From Thermoplasmata archaeon (lineage in GTDB: Archaea > Thermoplasmatota > Thermoplasmata > Lutacidiplasmatales > UBA184), in assembly GCA_030039525.1 (NCBI GenBank), contig JASHVI010000197.1, forward strand, positions 1-37,894: a stretch of 37,894 nucleotides of DNA, in the 5' to 3' direction. How positions within the stretch are numbered: the stretch's first letter is position 1; each line of letters begins with the position of its first letter. The notes beneath the pieces are model-generated. The model worked only from the letters and a program-made list of their open reading frames with translations. It did not search any database and was not told the origin of the DNA. A program made the position numbers and the translations under genes. This document shows positions 2,522-31,603 of this stretch, piece after piece.

Positions 2522-3631
2522 TTACCAAAGACTGGACTGCGAATCCTCGTTCCCGTGCCGGGCGAAGGCCTGTCGGACCGTGGCCGAAATGGCGGAAACG
2601 TCGACGCTCTCGACATGCTCCCCCGTGGCGGAGCCCGACGACCACGCGTGGGGGACCGCCAGCCACTGTCCGGGGTAGGTCGCGTTGGAGCCGGCGCCCG
2701 TGTCGTAGTAGAGCCCCAAGGTCGCTCGGAGGCTGGTCACGTTCGTCACCTCGGAGCAGCACGGGCCGGCCAGGACCCACTCGGCGTCCACGTGACCTCC
2801 TCCGGGCCAATGCGTTCCGACCTCGATCTCGGGGTGCCCTGCGCCCGCGGAGCCGGGCGTGAACAGGATTCGATCGAAATATCCCGAGTATCGAACGGTC
2901 GACCCTTCCTTCACCGCGCCGTAGAACGCGAGGCAGGAATCGTGGGCCCGAGCGCACGTGTAGTACGAGTTCATGTTCGGCCCGACGGTCATCACCGCCC
3001 ACAGGGAGATGGGCAGGGTCAGGTTGTAGATGACCGGTCCGACGCAGTAGTAGAACAGGCCTCCTTTCGACCCGAGGCTCGCGAACGCGGCCTGCCGGCA
3101 CGCGCCGCTCTGGTTCACCGCCATCGAGCCCGGGTCTAGGTCGCGAGCCTTGCTGGACTCGTTCCGGAGATTGTCCCCGAAGCTCACGCTGTAGGTTCCC
3201 CGGACGCATGGCAGCGAGCAGACCTTCCCGTCAAAGCCGACGTTCACGATGTTCTGGGGCCAGTACGAGCCGTTGTTGTTCTCGTCCATGAGCCCGAAGG
3301 CCCCGAGGTTCTCCTGCAGGCTCATGCAGGTGGTCGCGTACGGGTCGACTTTCGGCGGGCAGGAGGCTCGGTTCGAGAGCTTGGCCATCGTCAACTTCGT
3401 GATCTTCGCAAAACCCTCGAACGACGCCGCCGCGTATTGATAGGCGGTCCCATTGGGAGCGACGCCGTAATCGACCACGCCCATGGAGCAGTTCGAGCCG
3501 CAGACCGCCCCCGGCGGGGTCACGCTCGGCGTGGCGGCGGACGCCGCAGCGGCGGGGTTCGCCAGTCCGGCCGATAGAAGAAGCAGCGCCGGAATCGCGA
3601 GCAGCGCGATGCGACGACCGATCCTCAACAT
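2522..3631 (-). CDS. Thermopsin-family (peptidase A5-like) secreted protein
   Basis: ORF 2522..3679. The preferred start is ATG 3631 (MLRIGRRIALLAIPALLLLSAGLANPAAAA, signal peptide). MGVVDYGVAPNGTAYQY, SLQEN and YWPQNIVNV match my recollection of thermopsin hallmarks (GIADYG, QLN, YWxQNV), and the region aligns with the N-terminal part of ORF 10257..12386. Many NxS/T sequons. Confidence 0.7.
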   Translation of the reverse strand: MLRIGRRIALLAIPALLLLSAGLANPAAAASAATPSVTPPGAVCGSNCSMGVVDYGVAPNGTAYQYAAASFEGFAKITKLTMAKLSNRASCPPKVDPYATTCMSLQENLGAFGLMDENNNGSYWPQNIVNVGFDGKVCSLPCVRGTYSVSFGDNLRNESSKARDLDPGSMAVNQSGACRQAAFASLGSKGGLFYYCVGPVIYNLTLPISLWAVMTVGPNMNSYYTCARAHDSCLAFYGAVKEGSTVRYSGYFDRILFTPGSAGAGHPEIEVGTHWPGGGHVDAEWVLAGPCCSEVTNVTSLRATLGLYYDTGAGSNATYPGQWLAVPHAWSSGSATGEHVESVDVSAISATVRQAFARHGNEDSQSSLW

Positions 3632-3948
3632 CCGATCGAGCCTACCTCGCCCGCGGCATCCTTCAGGCTCCTCGGTCAAATGAGCCTATGGAAGGCCGGA
3701 GGCTTCCCTTCGTCGGGGCAGTGGCAGTCCGCCGGGATCACGCGGCGCAAGTCGCGAACCCGGGTGGCGGTCGAGGGCGCATCCGGCCGGCTCCTCGCCG
3801 GGTCCCTTCGGCCGAGAGGGGGCGCGCATCGGGGAAGTGCGCTGCGCGGTCCGCTGCGGGATTCGGTAGGCTTCGAACCGGCCGGAGCCGTGGGAAGCGG
3901 TTGGGGGGGGGTCCAGCGGGAAGGCTGGACCCCACGGAGGGATCGGCG

Positions 3949-6075: not shown

Positions 6076-7485
6076 GTGAGGTTGTTCGGCGGCGCCTCGA
6101 TGGTGAGTATTGCGGCGGTCGGCCTTCTGCTCCTGACGGTATTGCTGCCCGGATCCGTTTCCGGCACGGCCGTACCGGCCGGTGGGGCCCTCGCCCCGTT
6201 CGTTCTTCCGGGAGTCTCGGCCTCCACCCTCTGGGGAAATCCGGCGTGTCACGGAGGCCCCTTCGACGTCGGTCCCGCGAACCTGACCTCGAGCTCGGTC
6301 GTGACGCTTCCCGCTCCCGAGTGTGACTACATCTACGCCGGAGTCACCAACGGGGCCAACATTACGTCAGCCAGCCTTTCGGCCAACTTGACCTGGCCTC
6401 TCGCGAATTCCAGCTACGCCAAGTGGCGCGGCGCCTCGCAGATCGTCGAGATCGGCTCCGAGACGACCTCCGCCACCCGCGCCTGGAAGTACGTGGCCTA
6501 CCCCTCGTCGGCCAGCTTGACGGCTCCCGCCAACGGGACACCGGAACTCGGAGGTGTGGTCGTCTCGGCGCTCCCGACCGGGTTCCAAACCTACGTCTCC
6601 ACCAACTCCAGCTCCCTGACGGGATCGATCACCCTCCAGTCCCGCGCGTTCGTCCTCCTCGCCGTGGCCGCTTCGGGCGATTACTCGCCTCGCGTCGCAT
6701 CGCCGCTTCAGACGATCGCATCGCGGAGCCTCGGGAAGGGGGACTCCCTGCTGTTCGCGAGCGGCCGCTTCGGAGCGGGCTCGCAGACGTTCAGCGTCTC
6801 CTCGACCCAATCGAGCCCCGACGGATCGATCTCCGCCGTCCTCTACTACTACACCCAGACGAGTGACGTCAGGTCCCCGCTCTGGGGGGGTTATGTGGTG
6901 CCCACGGCGCGCGGGGTGACCGCCGTCAGCGAGGAATACTCGATCCCTCGCATCACGCGGCATTGCGGATACGGCGTCTCCGCGGCCGACATCCTGGTGG
7001 GGATTGATGGCTGGCGCGACTCGACCTCCGAGGTCGTAGGGACGACCTTGCTGTGCACGAACGGGACTCAAACGAACACCGCGTGGTACGACCTGCTTCC
7101 CTCCGCACCCGTAGCGATTCCCATCCCGGTCGCGATCGGACACAGCTACTACGCGTCGGTCGGATTCAACGCCACCACGCAGAACTACACGTTCACCTTC
7201 GTGGATCTCACGACGTCCAGGAGCTTCACCGCGACGGTCCACTCGAGCTCCAAGCCCTTGCGCAACGGGAGCTCGGCGGAGTGGGTCGTCTCGCTGGTGC
7301 CGGCGACCACCGCCAGCGGATACCTCCCGATCGCGAACCTGAGGAAAGGGTTCCGGATCAGCGACTGCCAAGCCACGATCGACGGCCAGACCGGAAAGAT
7401 CGCCGCCTTCTTCAACGACCGGGTTTCGGGACCGACCCACCCGGGTACCCTCGGCAAGACCGGGGACAGTTTCTTCGACCGATAG
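6076..7485 (+). CDS. Secreted protein with a C-terminal glutamic-peptidase (G1/eqolisin, Pfam Peptidase_A4)-like domain
   Basis: GTG 6076 is preceded by GAGGTG (alternative ATG at 6100). Signal peptide: VSIAAVGLLLLTVLLPGSVSG. The C-terminal about 200 aa show WGGYVV, VGIDGW, TAWYDLLP, a VxxxxxTxNYTFTFVDLTT block and SSAEWVVS. These correspond to the G1 motifs WxG, WVGIDG, AWYEWxP and SAEWIVE. The N-terminal about 260 aa have no family I recognise. Confidence 0.65.
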   Translation: MRLFGGASMVSIAAVGLLLLTVLLPGSVSGTAVPAGGALAPFVLPGVSASTLWGNPACHGGPFDVGPANLTSSSVVTLPAPECDYIYAGVTNGANITSASLSANLTWPLANSSYAKWRGASQIVEIGSETTSATRAWKYVAYPSSASLTAPANGTPELGGVVVSALPTGFQTYVSTNSSSLTGSITLQSRAFVLLAVAASGDYSPRVASPLQTIASRSLGKGDSLLFASGRFGAGSQTFSVSSTQSSPDGSISAVLYYYTQTSDVRSPLWGGYVVPTARGVTAVSEEYSIPRITRHCGYGVSAADILVGIDGWRDSTSEVVGTTLLCTNGTQTNTAWYDLLPSAPVAIPIPVAIGHSYYASVGFNATTQNYTFTFVDLTTSRSFTATVHSSSKPLRNGSSAEWVVSLVPATTASGYLPIANLRKGFRISDCQATIDGQTGKIAAFFNDRVSGPTHPGTLGKTGDSFFDR

Positions 7486-10256: not shown

Positions 10257-12386
10257 ATGCATTGGAGCCCCGGAATCACCCACGTGGAGGCCCGGTGGAT
10301 GGCCTGGGGGATCTTCGCTACTGCCTTCCTGCTTGGACTCCCAATCGCCGGGTCGGCCCCGGTCCAATTGCCCAGGCCCCCGGGCCTAGCCGGCGAGACC
10401 GCCCCGATCTCGCAGCCGGTCGAGTGGGTCGCGGGTCCGGCCCACGAGGTAGGCTCGGGAAGCGCTGGCCGACCAGACAGTCCAATGCCCGCGGTAGTGA
10501 ATCCGTACCTGTTCGAGTCGGATGAGCCGGCCGCTATCGGTGTCGCCGACTATGGGCTCACCGCTTCCGGAGTAGCGTACAACTATTCGACCCCCGAGTT
10601 CGTAGGAACTGCTTCGATCGGTTCCGTCGCCGTCGCGAGCTCGGGCGGCGCCGGAAAGCTGCTCGGGATCCAACTGAACCTCGTCCTCTCCCTCGGACCG
10701 ACGGGCCACCCCTACGTCTATTGGGTTCGGTTCGCCCCCTGGGTCAACGCCTCGACCGACGTCCTCACCCTGCAGAACGAGGTGTTCAACCTTACTTCGA
10801 CGTCTACGGACAATCCATCTCCCATCTCGGGTCGGGGCGCCATCAACACCGCCGAGGCGGACCAATATCAGTACACGCCGCCCTGTTCGTCGTCGTACCC
10901 CGGCAACTGTGCCGCCCTGTCGTTTCCGGCCCTCATGCAGCTGAGGGCCGTCTCTCAGGACGTCGATGGAGTGCCGGGGCTTGCCATCGCCTACAACCTC
11001 GGCCGTGGATGGATCTCCGAGGACAACATCTCCTTCCCCAGCCTCTCTGGCCTCGCCGACCGCGATTTCGTGGTCAATGGGTCGGGGTACACTCCGACCG
11101 GGCTCTTCTATGACGCCGAGTTCGTTCTGGGCGGTCCGTACCACGGGTACACCCAGACCAACCTGGGTTCGACCATCCAGCTGTCGCTGGACGAGTTCAA
11201 TGGACACAATCTTCAGGTGGTGCCCAACGCCTGGAACTTCGGCGCAGAGTCCTCCAATCGATTCCAAAACGCGTCCACCGTCGTGTCGGCCGCCAACGCC
11301 AGCCCCGCGGACCAAGTCGGGGCCGGGTCGGGCAAGCTCGGCCGACTGTACTCCACCTCGAACGAATCCACGGTGACGGTCGTCGGCGTGCCGACGTCCG
11401 GCGTGCTGACGGTGGATGGCTCTCCCCTCAACTATTCAGGGGGTGAGGCCGTGGTGGAGCTCGCCCCTGGTCGGGTCGCGCTCCAGCTGGTCTCCAACGG
11501 GTCCGTTCTGGCAAGTCGGAACGTGACGTTGACCGCGGGTGAGGTCACCACGATCTCGATGAACGCGTTCTACCCGATTGAGATCGAGGAGGCCGGCCTC
11601 CCGCCCGGAGCGAACTGGTCCATCGACTGGGCAGGTGAGATTCTGAGTTCCAATCTAAGCCATCTCGTCATCCTCGCCCTCAATGGAAGCTACACGCTGC
11701 GCGTCGAGAATGTCACGGGATTCACCTGCAATTTCACGGTCGAGCCGGTCCGGGTTCTCGGTCCTGGCGTGGTTCGCCTGGGCTGGTCACCCTTCCTGTT
11801 CGTAGTGCCCTTCGATGAGACCGGACTCACTTCCGGGACGTCCTGGTGGGTCACTATGGACAACCAAACGGCTCGTGGGGTCGGCCCCACTCTCAACGTC
11901 AGTGCAGGTAACGGATCGTACGCCTTCACCGTTGGTGCGCCCTACGCATTCGTCCCCTGGAGTGCGACGGGAAATGTCTCGGTGGACGGACCTCCAGGCC
12001 CTGTCCAGGTCGGCTTCAACTATCGACTCTCGTTCCTCGCGGGCAGCGTTCGACCCTCAGCTGCCATCGTATCGATCGGGGGAAGCTCGGTTGCGGTCGA
12101 TTCCGGCACCTTCAACGACTCGGTCCTCCCCGGTACCTACTTCGTCAGCGTTTCCGACCTCGGTTATGTTACCTGGTCGCGAAACGTCACCACGACCCCG
12201 GGCAACACGACCGAGTTGGCGATCGCTCTGAACGCGACTCCGTCGGCGGAGAAGCTAAGCCCAGAGTCGGCGCCGGGACCCGACTGGACGCTGGTGGAGG
12301 TTGCGTCAGTGACCGCGGTCGCCACGGTCGTCGGGGTCGCGATCATTCTACTGCGTCGGCGGTCGACCGGTCCGGGTTCGCGGTAG
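10257..12386 (+). CDS. Thermopsin-family (peptidase A5-like) protease with repeated beta-rich C-terminal domains and a C-terminal transmembrane anchor
   Basis: 709 aa. Signal-like MAWGIFATAFLLGLPIAGSAP (alternative start 10299). AAIGVADYGLTASGVAYNYSTPEFVGTASIGSV, LGIQLNLVL and YVYWV are thermopsin-like. The C-terminal WTLVEVASVTAVATVVGVAIILLRRR is a TM helix followed by basic residues. Confidence 0.8.
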   Translation: MHWSPGITHVEARWMAWGIFATAFLLGLPIAGSAPVQLPRPPGLAGETAPISQPVEWVAGPAHEVGSGSAGRPDSPMPAVVNPYLFESDEPAAIGVADYGLTASGVAYNYSTPEFVGTASIGSVAVASSGGAGKLLGIQLNLVLSLGPTGHPYVYWVRFAPWVNASTDVLTLQNEVFNLTSTSTDNPSPISGRGAINTAEADQYQYTPPCSSSYPGNCAALSFPALMQLRAVSQDVDGVPGLAIAYNLGRGWISEDNISFPSLSGLADRDFVVNGSGYTPTGLFYDAEFVLGGPYHGYTQTNLGSTIQLSLDEFNGHNLQVVPNAWNFGAESSNRFQNASTVVSAANASPADQVGAGSGKLGRLYSTSNESTVTVVGVPTSGVLTVDGSPLNYSGGEAVVELAPGRVALQLVSNGSVLASRNVTLTAGEVTTISMNAFYPIEIEEAGLPPGANWSIDWAGEILSSNLSHLVILALNGSYTLRVENVTGFTCNFTVEPVRVLGPGVVRLGWSPFLFVVPFDETGLTSGTSWWVTMDNQTARGVGPTLNVSAGNGSYAFTVGAPYAFVPWSATGNVSVDGPPGPVQVGFNYRLSFLAGSVRPSAAIVSIGGSSVAVDSGTFNDSVLPGTYFVSVSDLGYVTWSRNVTTTPGNTTELAIALNATPSAEKLSPESAPGPDWTLVEVASVTAVATVVGVAIILLRRRSTGPGSR

Positions 12387-23974: not shown

Positions 23975-24029
23975 GTCTCCGACCCGGGGCCCCTACCGGG
24001 CTCCCGCGCCGGCTCGGGGAGCCTTAACC

Positions 24030-24489
24030 GAGCGGTGGCCTGACCGACCTCGGGAGCGTGATCTCCGCGGGGGTAAGCTCGCCCGAAACTGGAGCACGTC
24101 GCGGTCGGGATCCCGGGAGCTCCGAGCCCGAGGGTCGAAGCCGGACAGCGGTTCCTGATCGCGCCCTTCCGGGATCTTGGTGAGCCAGTACTCGCACGGG
24201 GCCGCGATCCCGGGTGTCTCGCGGGTCGCTCCGAGGTCGGCGAGCGCGAGCAAGTTCCAGGCGGTCGAGAGGAACGGCGGGTAGAGCGGGTGGCGCTCGC
24301 TCAGCCACCACCCCCGGGGTCCCGACGCGAAAGAATCTCTCGCGCCCACGGCTCCTCCGGGATCTTCGCCCGAGGGGCACGGACCTCCGGGCCCGACCCA
24401 GGTCGTCCCAGGACTCCCGTCAGCGTGCGGTCGCGAATCGACGGTTGGCTCGGGTCGAGCAGCCAGCTCAGGACCCGGTCGCGCGACAC
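24030..24489 (-). pseudogene. Frameshifted and truncated remnant of an alpha/alpha-toroid (prenyltransferase/terpene-cyclase-like repeat) protein gene
   Basis: Two minus-strand frames join into one protein-like sequence: VSRDRVLSWLLDPSQPSIRDRTLTGVLGRPGSGPEVRAPRAKIPEEPWAREILSRRDPGGG (frame of ORF 24301..24774), then WWLSERHPLYPPFLSTAWNLLALADLGATRETPGIAAPCEYWL (frame of ORF 23993..24349). The switch is at a G/C homopolymer near 24306..24320. The joined sequence resembles the N-terminus of a longer (I recall about 300 aa) family, but it degenerates after about 150 aa. Confidence 0.35.
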
Positions 24490-24532
24490 GAACCCGCCTC
24501 GGACGCCCGCGCCGTGGCCACGGGAGCTCCGG

Positions 24533-25333
24533 TCAGACGCATTGAATCGTCTCGCCCCCGTCGACATCCCACGTGGCGCCGACCGCAAAGCTCGCTCGCT
24601 CCGACGCCAGGAAGCAGACGACGCTCGCGATCTCCTCGGGGCGACCGAACCGCCCGATCGGCAGGGGCCTCGCGTGGTCTTCGAGCCAAGGCCCGATCTT
24701 CTTCTTGTCGCCCCCGGTAAAGATCCGTGCGGCCTTCTGCCAGAGGGCGGTGTCGACCCGACCCGGGCAGACACAATTGACGCGGATCCTGTCCGCGATC
24801 AGCCTCAACGCCATGGACCTCGAGTACGAGACGAGGGCCGCCTTGGTCGCGAAGTAGTCGACCAGGTGGGGCCGGGCCTCGTGGCCCCATATCGAGGCCA
24901 CGTTGACGATGGCTCCGCCGCCTTGGTCCCGCATCAAGGGGGCGACCTCCCTCGTGCAGCGCGCGGCCCCCAGGAGGTTCACCTCGAAGGAGAAGTTCCA
25001 ATCGGCATCGGCCAGATCCTCGGACTTGGCCGCCCAAGCGCCCTCCGAGAGGTCTCCGGCGTTGTTGATCAGAATGTCGACTCGGCCGAATCGCCTCTTG
25101 GCTTTCCGGATCCCTCGTTGGACCTCGGCGGCTTTCGTCACGTCCATCGGAATCGCGAGCGCGACGACGCCGGAGGGCTCGAGGGCCCGCCGCACCTCCT
25201 CCAGGGCCGCGGAGTCCCGCGAGCAAAGCGCGACGTTGGCGCCCTCCCCCGCGAGACGCACGGCGATCTCGCGTCCGATGCCGCGGCTGGCGCCGGTGAC
25301 TATCGCGGACTTTCCTCGGAGCTCGAGGTCCAT
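24533..25333 (-). CDS. Short-chain dehydrogenase/reductase (SDR) family oxidoreductase
   Basis: TGASRGIG (cofactor motif), NNAG and YFATK (YxxxK), plus the C-terminal ASFAVGATWDVDGG. Confidence 0.9.
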   Translation of the reverse strand: MDLELRGKSAIVTGASRGIGREIAVRLAGEGANVALCSRDSAALEEVRRALEPSGVVALAIPMDVTKAAEVQRGIRKAKRRFGRVDILINNAGDLSEGAWAAKSEDLADADWNFSFEVNLLGAARCTREVAPLMRDQGGGAIVNVASIWGHEARPHLVDYFATKAALVSYSRSMALRLIADRIRVNCVCPGRVDTALWQKAARIFTGGDKKKIGPWLEDHARPLPIGRFGRPEEIASVVCFLASERASFAVGATWDVDGGETIQCV

Positions 25334-25548
25334 ACGATCGTCTCAGTCCCCGAACGAGGCCCCACGGTTGAACCTGCCGTAGGCGCCCGAGAATGCCCGC
25401 CGTTCGCCGTCCCTCCCGGGCGTGGAGGGTCGGTCGTTCGGTCGTCGGCCCACCTCTCAATTCGATCGGCCTCCGGACCCCGATCGACGACGCGCGGTGG
25501 TCTCGCCGAGGGCGGCGCCACTACACGTCCCAAAGCGCTGAAGTTTGT

Positions 25549-25588
25549 GTCGGGGGGGGGTGAACCGCAAGAACGTTCCAATCCCAAC
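25549..25588 (+). repeat. Junction repeat U1 (core only; the left extension is degenerate)
   Basis: gtc-G9-tgaaccgcaagaacgttccaatcccaac. It shares the GTCG(n)TGAAC-N9-GTTCxAATCCCxAC core with U2-U4. Confidence 0.7.
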
Positions 25589-25626
25589 CTGGGACGAAAG
25601 GCTCTTGTATGGTCAAACGGATATGT

Positions 25627-25642
25627 GTTCGGTAATCCGAAC
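25627..25642. promoter_or_regulatory. Perfect palindrome GTTCGG-TAAT-CCGAAC abutting the wHTH-MNT start codon (candidate operator)
   Basis: gttcggtaatccgaac ends 1 nt before ATG 25643. The gene product carries a winged-helix domain. Confidence 0.4.
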
Positions 25643-26230
25643 ATGCGCTTCCACGGCACGCTGACCGAGGTCCTTGGCTCGCCGGTTAGGGTGGACCTTC
25701 TCCGGATCCTCGCGAAGGCGCACGGAGGCAGCTTCAGCGGGAGGGAGCTGGCTCGTCAGGTTTCAGCCTCTCCTTCTCAGGTCAACCTCCATCTGTGGGC
25801 GCTAAGGTCGCAAGGACTGGTGAGGGTCTCGACGCTTGGTCGCCTCCACTCGTGGAGTCTCTCGATCGAGCATGCTCTCGCCGAGCCGCTGCAGAGGCTC
25901 TTCGAAGCCGAACCGGCCCTGCTCGAGCAACTGCGGGAACGTCTGGAAGCCACGTTGCGCCCGCTACCGATCGAGCGTGCGATCCTGTTCGGATCCATCG
26001 CGCGTGCTCAAGAGCGTCCGGAGAGCGACATTGACCTCTTCGTCGAGACTCGCGGGAACGCGGAGAAGGAGCGGGTCGCGGAAGCGTTGGGTCGCGCGAG
26101 CGTCGAGATCACTCAGCGATTCGGCAATCCGCTCTCGAACCTGATCCTCACGCGCGCTCAAGTCGAGCGGGGTTGGAACCCCGCCCTTCTCGCGGCCATC
26201 GAGCGGGAAGGGATCCCCCTGCGGACCTGA
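25643..26230 (+). CDS. wHTH-fused minimal nucleotidyltransferase (MNT-type antitoxin of an MNT/HEPN pair)
   Basis: The last 196 codons of the 646-aa ORF 24290..26230, from ATG 25643. wHTH: VRVDLLRILAKAHGGSFSGRELARQVSASPSQVNLHLWALRSQGLV. NTase motif: ILFGSIARAQERPESDIDLFV (GSxxRGx(n)SDxDL). It is a paralogue of 28468..29061. Confidence 0.85.
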   Translation: MRFHGTLTEVLGSPVRVDLLRILAKAHGGSFSGRELARQVSASPSQVNLHLWALRSQGLVRVSTLGRLHSWSLSIEHALAEPLQRLFEAEPALLEQLRERLEATLRPLPIERAILFGSIARAQERPESDIDLFVETRGNAEKERVAEALGRASVEITQRFGNPLSNLILTRAQVERGWNPALLAAIEREGIPLRT

Positions 26231-26234
26231 GCAC

Positions 26235-26636
26235 ATGGCTCCGTATCGCAGCTCCGACGTACCGCGAAGCCGGGCAAGGGTCTACCTGCGCCGTGCCGAG
26301 GAATTGCTCCGGGCCGCGGACTGGGGATTGGAAGAAGGATACGCCAACGTCGCGGCGGTAAATTTCGTTCATGCCTCCATCTCGGCGGCCGATGCGTTTC
26401 TCGTTCAGCAGCTCGGTCAGCGATCGTCAGGAGCGGATCATCACGAGGTCCTGAACCTCCTGGCGAGTGCCACTTCGCCTGAGCGACGGGTAATCGGCCA
26501 GCACCTCCAACGAGTCCTGGACCGGAAGAACGAGGTCGAGTACCAAGACCGGGAAGTGACCCTCGGCGACGCCAAGGAACTCGGTAAGCACGCGCACCGG
26601 CTGATCGAAACCGTTCGCCGAACGCTCCCAAACTGA
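26235..26636 (+). CDS. HEPN-domain protein (toxin partner of MNT)
   Basis: It starts 4 nt after the MNT stop. It has an Rx4-6H-type motif (GQRSSGADHHEV) and aligns with 28070..28465 (GQRWSGQDHAGV; KNEVEYQDREVT versus KNRVEYESREFT). Confidence 0.8.
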   Translation: MAPYRSSDVPRSRARVYLRRAEELLRAADWGLEEGYANVAAVNFVHASISAADAFLVQQLGQRSSGADHHEVLNLLASATSPERRVIGQHLQRVLDRKNEVEYQDREVTLGDAKELGKHAHRLIETVRRTLPN

Positions 26637-26725
26637 GCCTCGTGTCGCGCACAAGGTTCCGGAGAAGCTCGTCCCCGGGCCTGTCGGACCGCCGGATCTC
26701 AGCCGACCGGCCAGGCCGTTGAGTG

Positions 26726-26829
26726 GCTCAAGTCCCCGAGGCACCTCGGTCGACTTGACGCGATTCCTCGTCAGAGAATCGGTGCCCTGGTGTGGGGGGG
26801 TGAACCGCAAGAAAGTTCAAGTCCGGAAC
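26726..26829 (+). repeat. Junction repeat unit U2 (about 104 nt)
   Basis: gctcaagtccccgagg (T-loop-like box) ... cgtcagagaatcg ... gtg-G6-tgaaccgcaagaaagttcaagtccggaac. The first box is 66 nt from the core, as in U3/U4. Confidence 0.7.
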
Positions 26830-26856
26830 GCGGGCGGTCACACGCCCGGCCAGAGC

Positions 26857-27201
26857 TCACTCGAGGTCAGGGATCTTATCGCGGGGGAGGAGGACCATGA
26901 TGGTCCGGGGCTCTCCAGGTCGGCGGCTCAGCACACCCCTCGATCCTAGCCGAACGATCATGGCGTGTGCAGATGGGCCGCGAACTCCAAGGAACTCCGC
27001 GATCTCGTTCTCCGAGGGTGGCATTCGGTGGACCTTGGTGTACCAATAGACGTAGGCGACGAGCTGCCCCTGGGACTTCGATAGGCGACCGGTCGCTTGC
27101 CTGTCTACGGAGGTTCCCCTCGAGGCGAGACCGTCCGTTGCTCCCTCGAGCAGGGGGTCCGGAGACCCCGATCTGACCGGGATCCGACCGTGGGGCGGCA
27201 T
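26857..27201 (-). CDS. LexA/MarR-like winged-helix DNA-binding protein (third gene of the vapBC operon)
   Basis: From ATG 27201, 1 nt after the vapC stop. LSKSQGQLVAYVYWYTKVHRMPPSENEIAEFLGVRGPSAHAMIVRLGSRGVLSR resembles the LexA N-terminal DNA-binding domain pattern (LTxxQ...G.PPSxxEIA...S...HL..LxxKG). Confidence 0.6.
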   Translation of the reverse strand: MPPHGRIPVRSGSPDPLLEGATDGLASRGTSVDRQATGRLSKSQGQLVAYVYWYTKVHRMPPSENEIAEFLGVRGPSAHAMIVRLGSRGVLSRRPGEPRTIMVLLPRDKIPDLE

Positions 27202-27202
27202 T

Positions 27203-27574
27203 CTACCGAACAAACCGCACGCGCGCGAGCCCCTCGAACTCGTGGGCACCGGTCAGGAACTCGTGTCCCCGGTCGAGGGCGTAGACGTATCCCGCAGCAT
27301 CGGCGTAGGAGAACCGGCGGCCGGTGGCGCCCTTCTTCGCGAGGCGGAACCGAGCAATCTCGGGGATGAGGTCCTTCGGAAGGTCGGTTGCGATGGTGGA
27401 GAGTTCCTTGAGGATCCTCATCGCCAGGGCCTCTCCTCCGGCCTCCGTCAGAACGTGGTAGGCTTCGAGAAGGTCCAGAGTCGAGGTGGCCACCTCCTCG
27501 GCCTCGACGAAGTCGTATCGAGAGTTGTCCCGCGCCATTTCGACGATGGCGTAGGAGTCGAGAAAGAGGCTCAA
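27203..27574 (-). CDS. vapC: PIN-domain ribonuclease toxin (VapC-like)
   Basis: LSLFLDSYAIVEM... (first acidic residue), ...SYADAAGYVYAL... and a C-terminal FLTG..EF motif fit a PIN domain. I chose the TTG start at 27574..27572 because it overlaps the vapB TGA (TTGA) and keeps the first Asp. The upstream ATG (27652) would overlap vapB by 80 nt. Confidence 0.75.
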   Translation of the reverse strand: MSLFLDSYAIVEMARDNSRYDFVEAEEVATSTLDLLEAYHVLTEAGGEALAMRILKELSTIATDLPKDLIPEIARFRLAKKGATGRRFSYADAAGYVYALDRGHEFLTGAHEFEGLARVRFVR

Positions 27575-27789
27575 TCTCGCTCCGTCCGTGCCGCCAGGAT
27601 CAGCTCGTCGGTTGGAGCCTTCGAGTGGAATCTTCCCCGGATCTTCGACCAATCTACCTTCCGAGGGATGACGATGTGGACCCTGGTTCCGGGTCTCGCG
27701 CGCAGTTCCTTGACCACCCTTGCCGGGATGAGGACGCCCATCGAGTCCCCCACTTTTCGCACCGTCGCGTCGAACTCCGTCACGCGCAT
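27571..27789 (-). CDS. vapB: AbrB/SpoVT-fold antitoxin (VapB/MazE-like)
   Basis: From ATG 27789: MRVTEFDATVRKVGDSMGVLIPARVVKELRARPGTRVHIVI is the swapped-hairpin AbrB pattern (xKVGxSxxVxIPxxVxxxL). Confidence 0.75.
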   Translation of the reverse strand: MRVTEFDATVRKVGDSMGVLIPARVVKELRARPGTRVHIVIPRKVDWSKIRGRFHSKAPTDELILAARTERD

Positions 27790-27798
27790 AGCAATGAG

Positions 27799-27810
27799 AT
27801 TATAATATAT
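27799..27810 (-). promoter_or_regulatory. AT-rich TATA-like box upstream of vapB
   Basis: attataatatat is the most AT-rich 12-mer I noticed in the window. It lies at -11..-21 of ATG 27789, closer than the canonical archaeal spacing, so the TSS and start need experimental check. Confidence 0.4.
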
Positions 27811-27943
27811 CTGTCCTTCGCATCTCCTTCGGCGACGTGAGCGGTCCAGCGGATCACGCCGTAACACGCTATATCACCGATTCCAGGAAGGTGCTCCGAA
27901 TGGCCCACGGAGTCGGGCGAGGGCACAGCAAGGGCCCTCCGAC

Positions 27944-28047
27944 GTTCAAATCCCTACGGGCCTCCCCCCAAATCCGGGGATTTCACGTCAGGAAACGGAG
28001 ATTCAGATGTCGGGGGGGGTGAACCGCAAGTAAGTTCAAATCTCGAG
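27944..28047 (+). repeat. Junction repeat unit U3 (about 104 nt)
   Basis: gttcaaatccctacgg ... tttcacgtcaggaaa ... cagatgtc-G8-tgaaccgcaagtaagttcaaatctcgag. Confidence 0.75.
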
Positions 28048-28069
28048 CACCCGGCGATAGACGGATCAC

Positions 28070-28465
28070 CTACGGCGGCAGCTGGGGCTTCACCCAAGCG
28101 CGAACTCTTGTCGCACTCTGGCGGACATCTTCGGCCTCCCTCTCGGTAAACTCGCGAGACTCATACTCGACTCGGTTCTTTGCCTCCAATGCCCTCGAGA
28201 TCTGTCGGACGATCCGATCGGAATCGGGAAGGTGCAACGATCCCACCATGCCAATCACGCCCGCATGGTCTTGGCCGCTCCAGCGCTGTCCGGCCCGCTG
28301 GACGGTTAGCGCGTCGCAGGCGGAGACCACGGCGTGGACGCCGAGAAGCCCGACAGTGTTCCAGGCCTGTTCCGTTGCAGCCCGGTCCATCTGTTTCGCA
28401 AAGTCGTTCGATCGTTGCCAGTACACTTCGTAGCGCGCCTTCGGTACGACTTCGGTCCGCCCCAC
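28070..28465 (-). CDS. HEPN-domain protein (toxin partner of MNT), paralogue of 26235..26636
   Basis: 131 aa with the R-x5-H motif GQRWSGQDH. It starts 2 nt after the stop of the upstream MNT gene. Confidence 0.8.
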   Translation of the reverse strand: MGRTEVVPKARYEVYWQRSNDFAKQMDRAATEQAWNTVGLLGVHAVVSACDALTVQRAGQRWSGQDHAGVIGMVGSLHLPDSDRIVRQISRALEAKNRVEYESREFTEREAEDVRQSATRVRAWVKPQLPP

Positions 28466-28467
28466 GG

Positions 28468-29061
28468 TTAATCACCTTTGAGCGCGTCGACTCCCTCTTC
28501 CTCGATCGTTCGGAGAAGCGAAGGATTTCGGGGGTGCCTCGCTTCTGCCCTGGTGTAGATCAGGGCAGAAACAGGATTCCCGAATCGATCCCAGAGTCGA
28601 GATCGCACGCGATCAATCGCCCCCTCTGCGCGCGACCTGTCCTTGGAATCTCGAACCTCGAGGTAGAGGTCAACGTCGCTGTCGGCCCGTTCGTCCCCGC
28701 GAGGGATCGAGCCAAAGAGCCGCGCTCTCTCGAGATTGGCCGGTCGAAGGCCCTCAGATAGGTCGTGGAGGAGTTGCGAGGGAAGACTGGCTTCGTTGGC
28801 GAACAACTCGGCGAGGACCGGTCTCAGCACATGGGCCGAATTCAACCGCCACGAGTAGGACTTCCCAACCACCGTCCGGGTGACCAGCGAAGTCTCCGAC
28901 AGGTCCCGAAGGTCGCGGGCCGTTTGTGCCGAAGACACACCCGCCGCCTTCGCAAGTTCTCGGCCGGTCCAGCTCCGACTCGGCGAAGCGAACAGCACCC
29001 GCAACAGGCCGAGCTTCGTGGTGCTACCCAGCATCGGGTTCAAGGCGTCTCGGAACTTCAT
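28468..29061 (-). CDS. wHTH-fused minimal nucleotidyltransferase (MNT-type), paralogue of 25643..26230
   Basis: From ATG 29061 (MKFRDALNPMLGSTTKLGLLRVLFASPSRSWTGRELAKAAGVSSAQTARDLRDL...). NTase motif: RLFGSIPRGDERADSDVDLYL. The C-terminal block GNPVSALIYTRAEARHPRNPSLLRTIEEEG matches GNPLSNLILTRAQVERGWNPALLAAIEREG. Confidence 0.85.
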   Translation of the reverse strand: MKFRDALNPMLGSTTKLGLLRVLFASPSRSWTGRELAKAAGVSSAQTARDLRDLSETSLVTRTVVGKSYSWRLNSAHVLRPVLAELFANEASLPSQLLHDLSEGLRPANLERARLFGSIPRGDERADSDVDLYLEVRDSKDRSRAEGAIDRVRSRLWDRFGNPVSALIYTRAEARHPRNPSLLRTIEEEGVDALKGD

Positions 29062-29078
29062 GTCTCTTATAAGAGACA
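29061..29078. promoter_or_regulatory. Perfect 18-bp palindrome TGTCTCTTATAAGAGACA overlapping the MNT start codon (candidate operator/TATA)
   Basis: I read it directly. The sequence is its own reverse complement. A second small palindrome, tctcgaga, follows at about 29085..29092. Confidence 0.45.
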
Positions 29079-29206
29079 CATGAATCTCTCGAGATACATA
29101 AGACCATCGCAAATCCGGCTGCCCTGAACTTGGGGTGCCGTGACGTAGAGGGCTGCGAGGGCGAGCCGAGCGCATGGGGGCGAGTGGGCCGCGAACGAGC
29201 TTGGAG

Positions 29207-29310
29207 GTTCAAATCCCTGCGGAGGGCGCGACGAAATCTGACAGTTTCACGTCAGAATATCGATGTCCAGATGTCGGGGGGGTGAACCGCACGAAAGTTC
29301 AAATCCCGAC
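29207..29310 (+). repeat. Junction repeat unit U4 (about 104 nt, best preserved)
   Basis: gttcaaatccctgcgg ... ctgacagtttcacgtcag ... cagatgtc-G7-tgaaccgcacgaaagttcaaatcccgac. Nested inverted repeats GTCGGG/CCCGAC and TGAAC/GTTCA. Confidence 0.8.
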
Positions 29311-29356
29311 CCGGGCCCGCCCCGATCTGCGTCTCACATGGTCGGCGAGCTCTCGG

Positions 29357-29386
29357 TATTGGGGATTATTGGGGCTTCTTCCAATA
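29357..29386. promoter_or_regulatory. Tandem direct repeat TATTGGGG(x2) plus inverted CCAATA upstream of the AbiEi-like gene (candidate operator)
   Basis: tattggggattattggggcttcttccaata. It sits immediately upstream of the TATA-like box. Confidence 0.4.
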
Positions 29387-29394
29387 AACAAGTC

Positions 29395-29408
29395 TTTTAA
29401 TACTAATT
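29395..29408 (+). promoter_or_regulatory. TATA-like box ttttaatactaatt at -30..-17 of ATG 29425 (leaderless geometry)
   Basis: I counted the spacing directly. The flanks are strongly AT-rich compared with the rest of the window. Confidence 0.5.
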
Positions 29409-29424
29409 CCGATATTGTGGGAAC

Positions 29425-29997
29425 ATGCCGCTGACCTACGGCGACGCGCTTCCCTCCCTCTTCGGGTCAAAGCCGTTCACTTCTCGGGAGTTCGCCCGAA
29501 GGGCGAACGCTCCCCGAGCGGCCAAGATTCTCAGCGAGCTGAAGCGACGGGGAATCGTCGAGCGGATGGGGCGTGGAATGTACCGCTGCCTCGGGCCGGA
29601 GGAGCGCCCAGATCTCCGACTTGCTGAGTGGAGTCGGGTCCGGAATGCGGTTCTCAACGGACCGACTAGGAAGGCCTGGACTGGCCGTTCGGCCGTCGAG
29701 CTCTGGACCGGTGGCAGGTACCGGCTTGCGCCCTCGCCTTTCTACCGGGTATTCGAACTGGCCATCCCTGCCAACCGGGCAGAGGATTGGCGAAAGTACC
29801 TGGCCAGCCGGAATGTGGCCACGCACATGGGCAAGAGGGTGGGGTCCCGTGTCGATCTCGTTCCAGTGGCCCGAGTGAAGTCGATCGAGATCGACGGGGA
29901 ACCCGTGATTCCCCGCGCTGAGGTCGAGGCCATCATCGATGGGCATCCTGCTCTCTACGCAGGGGCCAAGGACCTTCTCCTCGATGGACCCAGATAG
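29425..29997 (+). CDS. AbiEi-like antitoxin/transcriptional regulator (wHTH N-domain)
   Basis: PFTSREFARRANAPRAAKILSELKRRGIVERMGRGMYR matches the AbiEi N-terminal pattern (F...L.......L..L...G.l.r..RGlY). It overlaps the next gene by 14 nt. Confidence 0.65.
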   Translation: MPLTYGDALPSLFGSKPFTSREFARRANAPRAAKILSELKRRGIVERMGRGMYRCLGPEERPDLRLAEWSRVRNAVLNGPTRKAWTGRSAVELWTGGRYRLAPSPFYRVFELAIPANRAEDWRKYLASRNVATHMGKRVGSRVDLVPVARVKSIEIDGEPVIPRAEVEAIIDGHPALYAGAKDLLLDGPR

Positions 29998-30691
29998 TCG
30001 CGAACGCGCGGCGGTCCAACTGCTCGACGACTGGCCGTGGGATCTCGGCGGAGTGGTGATCGGAGGGTACGCGGTGTGCGCGTATGGGCCGCCGAGGTAC
30101 TCGACCGATGTGGACGTCGTGATCCCGTTCGCCTCCGCGAATGCCATTCGATCGTGGCTTCGCGAGCGGGGGTTCCAGCTCGAAAAACATTCCACGCCGA
30201 ATCCACAGAACTACGAGGGCCAGGTCGAGAGATTCGTGGGCGGTGACGTGACCCTGGACCTCCTGGCGGGTGCGGTCCGCGATCGTGAAGCCCAGGTCGA
30301 CATATCGGAAGCTTGGATCTCCGCCCGTCCGAGGAAGGTCCGACTCGAGACCCTCGCCGCGCGGACCAATTCCGAGATTCCAATCGCTCGACCCGAGGCG
30401 CTCTGGGCCCTCAAACTTCAATCCGGACGCGACTCCGATCTTTCGGATTTGTTCGCTATCTCAGAAGAAGCCGTCGATACGGACGAGGTGCGTCGCGCGC
30501 TTCTGGACGCACGGAGTCCATCGCTCGTCGACAAGCTTCGGAAAGTCAGAAAGAAGCTGGAAGAGAATCAACTGTACGTGGATTCGTTGAGCCGGCGCGA
30601 GCTCGGTCGGCCATCCGACCCAAAGAATCGCCGCAACTGGTCGAAATTCGTAGCGCAAGTTGACCGGATTCTAGTTCCAACCATTGTTTGA
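29984..30691 (+). CDS. Nucleotidyltransferase-fold protein (AbiEii/DUF-NTase-like toxin candidate)
   Basis: From ATG 29984 (MDPDSRERAAVQLL...). VIGGYAVCAYGPPRYSTDVDVVI fits GGxAx(n)RxTxDxD of Pol-beta-fold NTases. The track ORF starts 45 nt earlier at 29939. Confidence 0.7.
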   Translation: MDPDSRERAAVQLLDDWPWDLGGVVIGGYAVCAYGPPRYSTDVDVVIPFASANAIRSWLRERGFQLEKHSTPNPQNYEGQVERFVGGDVTLDLLAGAVRDREAQVDISEAWISARPRKVRLETLAARTNSEIPIARPEALWALKLQSGRDSDLSDLFAISEEAVDTDEVRRALLDARSPSLVDKLRKVRKKLEENQLYVDSLSRRELGRPSDPKNRRNWSKFVAQVDRILVPTIV

Positions 30692-30728
30692 TGATCTTAC
30701 GTTGGCGGAGCAACTTAATCCCAAGCCG

Positions 30729-30733
30729 TTTTT
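30729..30733 (+). terminator. Oligo-T stretch (possible archaeal terminator for the cassette-4 operon)
   Basis: A ttttt run about 38 nt after the 30691 stop, just before the tRNA 3' end on the opposite strand. Confidence 0.25.
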
Positions 30734-30739
30734 CACAGG

Positions 30740-30842
30740 TGTCGGGGGGGGGATTTGAACCCCCGGCCCCAGGATCTCTCCGGGACCGCCGGCGGGCGGT
30801 CCCCTATGAGTCCCGTGCTCTACCAGGCTGAGCCACCCCGAC
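30740..30842 (-). tRNA. tRNA with CAU anticodon (elongator Met or Ile2) containing a 29-nt intron at position 37/38
   Basis: Reverse complement: GTCGGGG-TG-GCTC-AGCCTGGTA-GAGC-A-CGGGA-CTCATA[GGGGACCGCCCGCCGGCGGTCCCGGAGAG]A-TCCTG-GGGCC-GGGGG-TTCAAAT-CCCCC-CCCCGAC-A. All four stems pair, with one G-U in the anticodon stem. The intron contains a 9-bp helix GGGACCGCC/GGCGGTCCC. G1-C72 and A31-U39 argue against an initiator tRNA. No CCA is encoded. Confidence 0.9.
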
Positions 30843-30883
30843 AGGGAACACGGTCACGGGCCCACGCCCGGGACGGAGGACGC

Positions 30884-31603
30884 TCACGGGGCCGGCGCTT
30901 CGCCTTCGGCCATCGCGGGGGCCTCGGGCGGCGAGGGACCGCCCTCGACGGAGGCGCCGGGGGTCTCCTCGGCGGTTGGCTCGTCCGAGATGGTCCCCAG
31001 CACCTCGGAGCACCGGATCTCGATCTTCTTCAGGGGATAGAGGGTCCGGACCCCGTGGGCGAGGAGCTTCGAGAGGTCCCCGCCGAGCATCTCCTTGACG
31101 AACTCCGCGGCGGTGCGCTGCTGCGCCTCCTCGCGCAGGAGCGTCTCCAGGCGGTGGCGGAGCTCCGTGCGCAGGTGGGTCTGGAGCCGCTGCTCGCCGA
31201 CGGCCACCGGCTTCACCACGATCTGCACGCCGTCCTTCGTGGTGACCTCGAGCGAGAGGTCGATCTTCGAGCGCTTGCGCCGGGCGAGACGGCGGACGAA
31301 GTCGCTCGTGAGCTCGTGGCCGATGAACGTCGTCTCGGCGACGTGCTCCCCGGAGACCCGCTCGACGCGGAAACGGAGCTTGATGTGGGCCTTCCCGATG
31401 TCCGCGCCGCCCCCGATCTCCTGGAGGCTCATCTCGAGGGTCCGGCCCACCACCTGCTCGGGCTCCGAGGCCATCGTCTCCCCGAGCTCGGCGTGCTGGA
31501 AGACCCCCGGCGCGCGGACCTTGAACCAGTGCTTGGAACGCCACTTGTCCTTGACGGTCCGGGCCAGCGGCGCCTTCTTCGCCGGGGCCTCCTTGTCGGC
31601 CAT
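30884..31603 (-). CDS. rps3ae: 30S ribosomal protein S3Ae (eS1)
   Basis: From ATG 31603: MADKEAPAKKAPLARTVKDKWRSKHWFKVRAPGVFQ...GRTLEMSLQEI... is the characteristic eS1 N-terminus (KDKWKxKxWYxVxAP). It has an acidic/Ala-Pro-rich C-terminal tail. A TATA-like cttaagtaac lies at about 31631..31640. Confidence 0.9.
   Translation of the reverse strand: MADKEAPAKKAPLARTVKDKWRSKHWFKVRAPGVFQHAELGETMASEPEQVVGRTLEMSLQEIGGGADIGKAHIKLRFRVERVSGEHVAETTFIGHELTSDFVRRLARRKRSKIDLSLEVTTKDGVQIVVKPVAVGEQRLQTHLRTELRHRLETLLREEAQQRTAAEFVKEMLGGDLSKLLAHGVRTLYPLKKIEIRCSEVLGTISDEPTAEETPGASVEGGPSPPEAPAMAEGEAPAP

Follow-up and report, generated by a model that had tools for sequence, protein, structure and literature searches.

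A probable attP-like junction unit in a tRNA-anchored array of toxin-antitoxin cassettes without integrase in Thermoplasmata

Closest described systems

Serial integration at one tRNA gene, leaving partial tRNA copies between the elements, is an established process, and tycheposon islands and archaeal tyrosine-recombinase elements both accrete in this way (PMC6563490; bioRxiv 10.1101/2020.12.28.424599). Here we analysed 37,894 nt of a Thermoplasmata archaeon (GenBank assembly GCA_030039525.1, contig JASHVI010000197.1; the window), in which an island next to a tRNA(CAU) gene consists of four small toxin-antitoxin (TA) modules identified with Pfam. Units of about 104 nt lie exactly between the modules, and one lies at the far end. 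It is likely that this unit is an attP-like composite attachment junction in a tRNA-anchored array of TA cassettes that have no integrase. The general mechanism is known, and the tiny integrase-less cassettes, the fixed three-box site mimicking a T-loop and the integron-like behaviour in Thermoplasmata make this an unusual variant of it.

Like the tandem arrays of tRNA-integrative elements (tycheposons in Prochlorococcus, and archaeal arrays), the locus combines insertion at the tRNA 3' end, with the tRNA left intact, with partial tRNA copies between the elements and at the far end, a deviating base composition and a related empty site. In contrast to them, its elements are TA operons of 1.1-1.4 kb without integrase, replication or structural genes, and every junction holds a complete two-arm site of fixed geometry whose arms contain two mimics of the tRNA T-loop. 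Growth at the tRNA-proximal end through repeated integration, with partial tRNAs left between the elements, is also seen in tycheposon-type islands, but these carry their own tyrosine recombinase and a replication module, whereas only TA-type genes are present here, and the integrase gene that tRNA-targeting integrative elements carry inside the element was not found in these cassettes.

Integron arrays (attI/attC sites and IntI, and the archaeal clusters of attC sites lacking an integron integrase, CALINs) offer a functional analogy, as small mobile cassettes, often of TA type, are stockpiled at one locus, each bounded by a site of about 100 nt, with an order that is shuffled between genomes and a recombinase outside the cassettes. 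However, the units have no attC consensus or hairpin, IntI is absent, the cassettes stand in both orientations, and the platform is a tRNA 3' end instead of an attI next to intI. Cis-mobilisable elements (CIMEs) and mobilisable genomic islands are also att-bounded, depend on an integrase encoded elsewhere and accrete beside their target site; these are bacterial and usually larger. To our knowledge they do not occur as multi-cassette TA arrays with such a site, and we know of none described in Thermoplasmata. A literature search for equivalent non-autonomous multi-cassette TA arrays found no equivalent.

Units, their two halves and the tRNA 3' end

Four copies of the unit core are present on the plus strand, with start-to-start distances of 1240, 1219 and 1263 nt, and were matched by R1, a sequence-only model of the full unit:

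25503-25593, plus strand: unit U1 at the far array end, attR-like (partial R1 match, model positions 28-115, E 8.4e-11); TGTC-G9 25548-25560, spacer 25561-25574, box 2 variant GTTCCAATCC 25575-25584
26722-26838, plus strand: unit U2, full junction between cassettes 1 and 2 (R1 78.9 bits, E 4.9e-23); box 1 variant GCTCAAGTCC 26726-26735, CTCGTCAGAG 26767-26776, TGTG-Gn at about 26790-26800, box 2 variant GTTCAAGTCC 26815-26824
27940-28058, plus strand: unit U3, full junction between cassettes 2 and 3 (R1 80.1 bits, E 2e-23); box 1 27944-27953, CACGTCAGGA 27984-27993, TGTC-G8 28008-28019, spacer 28020-28033, box 2 28034-28043
29202-29321, plus strand: unit U4, full attP-like junction between cassettes 3 and 4 (R1 93.7 bits, E 1.2e-27, model positions 2-121); box 1 GTTCAAATCC 29207-29216, CACGTCAGAA 29248-29257, TGTC 29272-29275, G7 29276-29282, 14-nt spacer TGAACCGCACGAAA 29283-29296, box 2 GTTCAAATCC 29297-29306

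The boxes, core and spacing that a preliminary description had read from U4 are all present, and the layout is common to U2, U3 and U4: the distance to the G-run is 68-69 nt from box 1 and 28 nt from CACGTCAG, and the two T-loop-like boxes stand in the same orientation 89-90 nt apart. Its observation that the poly-G tract varies between 7 and 9 also holds, the G-run being 9, 7, 8 and 7 nt long in U1, U2, U3 and U4. U1 consists of the core only, without box 1; it has a degenerate CACGTCCCAA at 25524-25533, and its degenerate CACGTCCC keeps the same register as in the other units. With at most one mismatch, GTTCAAATCC occurs eight times in the window against 1.1 expected, a number reached by none of 100 shuffles.

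The units fall into two halves, and this was seen when R1 was compared with related Thermoplasmata contigs (numbered here with L; the two-half comparison spans 11 contigs). Three types of junction occur. Full-length matches (model positions 3-121, E 1e-18 to 1e-27) are found between cassettes. Matches restricted to the left half (positions 3-89, covering box 1, CACGTCAG and TGTC-Gn) are found in L003, L008, L011 and L022 (E 1e-14 to 1e-15), where they run directly into the true tRNA. Matches restricted to the right half (about positions 61-120, covering TGTC-Gn, the 14-nt spacer and box 2) are found at far array ends, namely in U1 of the window and in L001, L002, L003, L004, L006, L007, L009, L011 and L022. 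R1 gave no match in the loci without an array (L012, L015, L018, L021, L024 and L025) and none elsewhere in the window.

The halves assort independently and travel with different cassettes. Between L004b and L022b the left arms (P' arms in the mechanism below) are 93% identical, while the spacers are 64% and the right flanks 45% identical; between U3 of the window and L008a it is the right flanks that are alike (86%, P' arms 66%). In U4 and L008b, which both stand at the same end of the same HEPN-nucleotidyltransferase (MNT) cassette, the P' arms reach 78% identity, where the background is 50-60%. The left-half and right-half classes overlap solely in TGTC-Gn, and because of this we place the exchange in that segment and not in the 9-nt spacer of the core. 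With moderate confidence, and as far as the sequences can tell, the exchange point lies in TGTC-Gn, which corresponds to the acceptor 3' strand and the discriminator base of the tRNA. A homopolymer at the exchange point would account for the variable length of the G-run. Nothing in the tRNA target corresponds to the 9-nt spacer (CGCAAGAAA); the target has CCCCGGCCC at this place.

The proposed target is the tRNA gene at the right edge of the island:

30740-30842, minus strand: intron-containing tRNA(CAU), proposed integration target (attB/attL) (Rfam RF00005, 56.1 bits, E 1.2e-09)

The gene is 103 nt long and is an archaeal intron-containing tRNA, because a 31-nt insertion follows the anticodon CAU in the Rfam match. 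It is of methionine type, and the host is a soil archaeon. ARAGORN reported no tRNA in the whole window and thus missed this real one, which Rfam finds; scans with ARAGORN only would miss the key tRNA context. The 3' end of the tRNA is GGGGGTTCAAATCCCCCCCCCGACA, which on the plus strand reads TGTC-G9-ATTTGAAC (30740-30760), and the proposed crossover segment comprises 30740-30752. The left arm of the units (TGTC-G7-9-TGAAC) equals this plus-strand sequence minus ATT and thus repeats the tRNA 3' end in the same orientation as the tRNA.

In tests with 1000 dinucleotide shuffles each, the left arm matched the reverse complement of the neighbouring tRNA 3' end with p = 0.000 in U1, 0.004 in U3, 0.007 in U4 and 0.19 in U2. 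Against the sense tRNA 3' end, the box-2 side gave p = 0.003 to 0.05 and box 1 p <= 0.011. The arms were thus found to match the tRNA 3' end better than shuffled controls, as the preliminary description had proposed, with U2 (0.19) as the weak case for the left arm, and the comparisons support derivation of the unit from a tRNA 3' end. The tRNA 3' segment recurs as a direct repeat, oriented like the tRNA, at the far boundary and between the elements. An intact tRNA followed by an element flank is seen at the proximal boundary in L003, L008, L011 and L022, where the P' arm is fused to the true tRNA. The window's own proximal flank at the tRNA is not P'-like: the tRNA-side end of cassette 4 is without box 1 and without the CACGTCAG arm, and R1 gives no match at the tRNA junction.

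In the mechanism that we propose, site-specific recombination, most plausibly through a tyrosine recombinase, would have inserted the cassettes one after another, with the tRNA(CAU) 3' end or an existing unit as the target. The exchange segment O would be C(n)GACA, the acceptor 3' strand of the tRNA with its discriminator base, which is TGTC-Gn on the plus strand. The P arm, in the direction of the tRNA, would comprise box 2 (GGATTTGAAC) and the 14-nt spacer and belong to the cassette on the tRNA side, and the P' arm of about 70 nt, with CTGACGTG and box 1 at constant distances (28 nt and 68-70 nt), would belong to the cassette on the far side. Recombination between a circular cassette (P-O-P') and the tRNA (B-O-B') would leave tRNA-O-P' as the near junction and P-O-B' as the far one; further insertions would produce internal P-O-P' junctions, the 104-nt units. 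The boxes would act as arm-type protein-binding sites that copy the tRNA stretch beside the exchange point, and not as an RNA structure; box 1, box 2 and CACGTCAG are putative binding sites, judging from their invariance and fixed spacing. Since the cassettes are without an integrase of their own, they would be mobilised by a recombinase acting in trans. Such a site resembles attP of the lambda type, which combines a core with arm-type and accessory-factor sites, in its short exchange segment common with the target and its asymmetric arms (about 25 and 70 nt) with repeated motifs at fixed distances, but arm binding is here only suggested by the motifs, and no symmetric core-type half-sites were recognised.

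Altogether 23 units were catalogued, all with TGTC-G(6-10), a spacer of 13-15 nt and GTTCRAATCC. In every full unit the G-run is preceded by CACGTCAG at 27-28 nt and by box 1 at 68-70 nt, and the invariant alignment columns are restricted to the boxes and the G-run. The sequence between the boxes has drifted to 50-60% identity across genomes in which the neighbouring ribosomal protein S3Ae is 74-92% identical. There are at least three types of spacer, A (TGAACCGCAAGAAA), B (TGGWTTGACGAAKA) and C ((A)ACATYNCCGAAAR). Type B units carry TGGWTTGAC and type C units (A)ACATYNCC in place of TGAAC, the geometry being otherwise the same, and the TGAAC/GTTCA inverted repeat is specific to type A because types B and C have other spacers.

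The core pattern was found in four contigs of Thermoplasmata metagenome-assembled genomes and in three short metagenome contigs, with no matches in viral contigs. Looser patterns gave 18 loci in viral contigs, of which R1 scored none convincingly and which inspection showed to be chance matches. One viral contig (IMGVR_UViG_3300028892_001774; L027, 2860-2960, minus strand) has two direct CGATACAGGACACGGGTTCGAATCCCCGGCTTAG copies about 60 nt apart, another duplication resembling a tRNA 3' end on a contig that is unrelated. At the locus of the S3Ae gene (rpS3Ae) and the tRNA, further relatives have more arrays at the same tRNA (L008, L009/L010, L011 and L022), and others have no units and an unoccupied target (L012-L014 and L021). 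In L012-L014 the tRNA ends in CCCCCCTCCGACA, without an uninterrupted C9 run (thus not C9-GACA), and no array is present (seen at L012 10780-10960). An uninterrupted C-run may be required for integration or may be produced by it.

Points of doubt and alternative explanations

Several observations weigh against an attP-like junction in a mobile array. Neither Pfam nor tblastn with the Thermoplasmata tyrosine-recombinase family detected an integrase gene or a remnant of one anywhere in the window, inside or outside the island, or at any array locus, and the candidate recombinase described below could not be placed in one genome with an array. Unusually for a tyrosine-recombinase site, TGTC-Gn is not bordered by obvious inverted half-sites of the core type. 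Scans of viral contigs found no circular or free cassette, and the present mobility of the cassettes is putative. Some rearrangements break outside the units, and the partners of a LexA-like gene vary between arrays. The cassette adjoining the tRNA is without a P' arm in the window, L002 and L009; such cassettes could either have another type of site or have been resident before later insertions at the distal unit, and both routes give the observed junctions.

The preliminary description had placed the crossover elsewhere, in a tyrosine-recombinase core of two inverted arms around a 9-nt spacer. Under this explanation GGGG-TGAAC / 9 nt / GTTCA-AATCC would be two recombinase-binding arms in the manner of lox or dif, and units would exchange with each other inside the spacer. 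Within type A, the inverted pentamers and the 9-nt spacer are indeed highly conserved across genomes, a palindromic variant of the unit exists at L001 7750-7800, and recombination of unit with unit fits the tRNA-proximal AbiE cassette that is kept in both the window and L009. However, types B and C keep the geometry but have other sequence in place of the TGAAC arm, and tRNA-P' junctions occur although the tRNA target offers no spacer to match. Moreover, half-unit matches start or stop at the G-run and not in the spacer, and the 93% identity of L004b and L022b in the P' arm is down to 64% in the spacer itself. A dif/Xer site, moreover, occurs singly in the chromosome and has an arm of about 11 bp on either side of a 6-8 bp spacer, whereas here four copies stand at cassette junctions with a 9-nt spacer and arms that are not conserved in types B and C. 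We therefore regard a crossover in the spacer as unlikely. What stands of the original proposal is att-like site-specific recombination; the inverted arms and the crossover between them do not, since the inverted repeat is lost in types B and C and half-units overlap only in TGTC-Gn. The palindromic variant in L001 is itself of note, as it has the CCGGGGGGTTCAAATAT motif inverted as its right arm (TGTCGGGGGGGGAATCCGAACCCCCC/GGGGGTTCGAATATT).

The units could also be inert scars, the leftover att sites and flanks of larger decayed elements, with no present function and alike only through recent common descent. The absence of an integrase in cis would fit this, as would the existence of degenerate copies (U1 of the window; L022 at about 15435), and islands of decayed elements are common beside tRNAs. 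It is nevertheless quite improbable: the boxes have kept their positions and sequences while the intervening sequence drifted to the low identity given above, and the cassettes are uniformly small, intact TA operons with both arms each, reshuffled between genomes.

It is very improbable that transcription of the unit yields a structured small RNA, tRNA-like or containing T-loops, or that the unit is part of a split or permuted tRNA. The idea has a basis in the T-loop-like motif GTTCAAATCC, which occurs twice per unit, and in a nested hairpin that U4 can form (-15.2 kcal/mol). In contrast, the folding z-scores of units and cores as RNA were between -1.64 and +0.27 on both strands, and in an alignment of 12 full units the three proposed stems (16 pairs) had no compensatory change, while 500 of 500 column shuffles reached the observed pairing. 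In the same alignment the local hairpin pairs in 42% of the cells and the outer GTC:GAC in 57%, and RNAalifold kept only the invariant GGGG/TCCC and GAAC/GTTC pairs (covariation term -0.03 kcal/mol). Rfam, searched to E 10 over 24000-31500, gave only chance-level matches besides the true tRNA and none on a unit, and ARAGORN matched no unit either. With neither covariation nor unusual folding stability, and without a match in Rfam or ARAGORN, a structured RNA is unsupported; the varying G-run length and the independent exchange of the halves also speak against it. The suggestion of a small RNA, together with the covariation expected of it, is thus not borne out. A split or permuted tRNA was rejected because, as read from the sequence, no T-stem flanks box 1 or box 2. 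The nested stems of the preliminary description survive in part: TGAAC/GTTCA pairs in type A units, but the outer GTCGGG:CCCGAC is found in U4 only. Similarly, the local pairing CTGAC/GTCAG of the conserved segment is present in U4, but the hairpin is specific to it and not general. A protein-coding reading of the units was also considered, as the open reading frames 29174-29434 and 26719-26949 have the peptide GGVNRxKVQ in common; it was rejected because the G-run varies by non-multiples of three and the halves recombine independently.

A canonical CALIN with the units as attC sites is hardly tenable: short TA-rich cassettes with repeats of about 100 nt between them and no integrase nearby would suit it, and most reported archaeal integrons are also without integrase (PMC9668308), but the units have no R''/R' pair (GTTCAAA violates the GTTRRRY of R', and AAC and GTT, which in attC end R'' RYYYAAC and open R', are here just 9 nt apart), no long imperfect palindrome and no stable hairpin, the cassettes stand in both orientations, with AT-rich regions of their own upstream, a tRNA gene anchors the array and is the source of its site, and in place of an integron head of IntI and attI the flanks are the dehydrogenase gene described below and the tRNA, with no tyrosine recombinase in the window.

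Candidate recombinase, cassettes and biological meaning

Returning to an attP-like site served in trans, the leading candidate for the acting enzyme is a protein family of about 460 aa (448-470 aa) encoded directly 3' of the same tRNA in L015-L020 and L024, and beside another tRNA in L025; we make this assignment tentatively. Its genes were located as follows:

L018 10897-12291, plus strand: gene of the ~460-aa protein
L015 10995-12341: gene of the ~460-aa protein
L024 8001-9413: gene of the ~460-aa protein
L025 4314-5762: gene of the ~460-aa protein

The protein has no Pfam match and belongs to a large Thermoplasmata family (262 database matches), some members of which JGI labels integrase. 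Searching PDB sequences with phmmer gave nothing, and a profile search gave XerA at E 0.17, which is suggestive at most. With an AlphaFold model (pLDDT 77), a fold search returned XerA (4a8e, E 1.5e-7), then IntI, XerH, Cre and lambda Int, and the positions of conserved Arg, His and Tyr in the family fit a tyrosine recombinase. The family is thus predicted from the model to fold as a tyrosine recombinase, with only a distant relation to lambda Int. For the integrase-bearing elements of L015 and L018, no distal att site was found within the DNA examined. As a separate observation, a second direct copy of the 5' half of the T-arm and the loop (CCGGGGGGTTCAAATAT) follows about 12 nt after the tRNA end at some of these loci:

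L015 10853-10870: CCGGGGGGTTCAAATAT copy
L018 10858-10875: CCGGGGGGTTCAAATAT copy
L024 7962-7978: CCGGGGGGTTCAAATAT copy
L021, about 10885-10900: degenerate CCGGGGGGTTCAAATAT copy

The island (about 25400-30800) has a GC content of 0.59-0.65 in a GC scan, against about 0.72 for the window, and reaches from directly 3' of the tRNA(CAU) to U1. A short-chain dehydrogenase (SDR) gene stands at its left edge; the right edge is the tRNA on the minus strand, and beyond it lies rpS3Ae, which is also present on GCA_030046255.1. The four cassettes are:

25594-26721, plus strand: cassette 1, with winged helix-turn-helix (wHTH)-MNT 25643-26230 and HEPN 26235-26636 (Pfam NTP_transf_2, Polbeta, HTH_20, HEPN)
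26839-27939, minus strand: cassette 2, with LexA-like wHTH 26857-27249, PIN-like 27203-27574 and AbrB/MazE-like 27571-27792 (Pfam LexA_DNA_bind, MazE_antitoxin)
28059-29201, minus strand: cassette 3, with HEPN 28070-28465 and wHTH-MNT 28468-29062 (Pfam)
29322-30739, plus strand: cassette 4, adjoining the tRNA, with AbiEi 29425-29997 and AbiEii 29939-30691 (Pfam AbiEi_4, AbiEii)

They measure about 1.1-1.4 kb, occur in both orientations and are preceded by AT-rich regions of their own. A cassette homologous to cassette 1 is found in L022 and L006 at about 70% DNA identity, and cassette 2 has homologues in L008, L011 and L022 that are otherwise arranged (tblastn). Cassette 3 with both half-sites (27938-29314) is 83.7% identical to L008 11386-10007, which lies at another array position, and cassette 4 is 70.7% identical to the tRNA-proximal cassette of L009/L010. 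The order of the cassettes differs between genomes: towards the tRNA, the window has cassette 2 (LexA-like wHTH) and then cassette 3 (HEPN-MNT), and in L008 this order is reversed.

The LexA-like wHTH gene (about 80 aa conserved, 67-83% identity) is present in four arrays with differing TA partners and mostly abuts the box-2 side of a unit:

Window 26857-27105, minus strand: LexA-like wHTH gene
L008 9738-9977: LexA-like wHTH gene
L011 13003-13239: LexA-like wHTH gene
L022 12294-12521: LexA-like wHTH gene

The gene could encode a regulator; a recombination directionality factor is a speculative alternative. Upstream of tRNA-proximal cassettes ATTGG ... CCAAT is repeated (window 29355-29395, TATTGGGGATTATTGGGGCTTCTTCCAATAA; L002 4150-4215, TATTGGTGTTTATTGGTCATTTGCCCAATAA); the upstream element is common to the window and L002, and the genes differ (AbiE versus an AAA-type ATPase). 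This element may serve as an operator or promoter. Two thermopsin genes and one peptidase A4 gene are clustered in the left part of the window (2522-3679, 6076-7485 and 10257-12386), and three secreted genes of acid-protease type are consistent with an acidophilic or soil lifestyle of Thermoplasmata.

A wider possibility, which we put forward tentatively, is that soil Thermoplasmata have an integron-like cassette system independent of the bacterial integrons. In such a system the 3' end of tRNA(CAU) would serve as the docking site, T-loop-mimicking sites of about 105 nt would take the role of attC, and TA or defence cassettes of one operon each would be captured, stockpiled and reshuffled by a trans-acting, lineage-specific tyrosine recombinase without a Pfam match. 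For annotation, T-loop-like motifs between genes beside a tRNA should first be read as components of att sites and not as RNA genes. The locus offers a testable substrate, about 105 nt long, in which three boxes and an exchange segment (about 11 nt) are defined, together with a candidate archaeal recombinase family. If the cassettes are mobilised in trans, this would be a second, independently evolved route to cassette arrays, in Archaea, with a tRNA gene as the platform and a recombination site that imitates the tRNA's own T-loop region, and it would explain the exchange of toxin-antitoxin and abortive-infection-type modules among uncultured soil Thermoplasmata.

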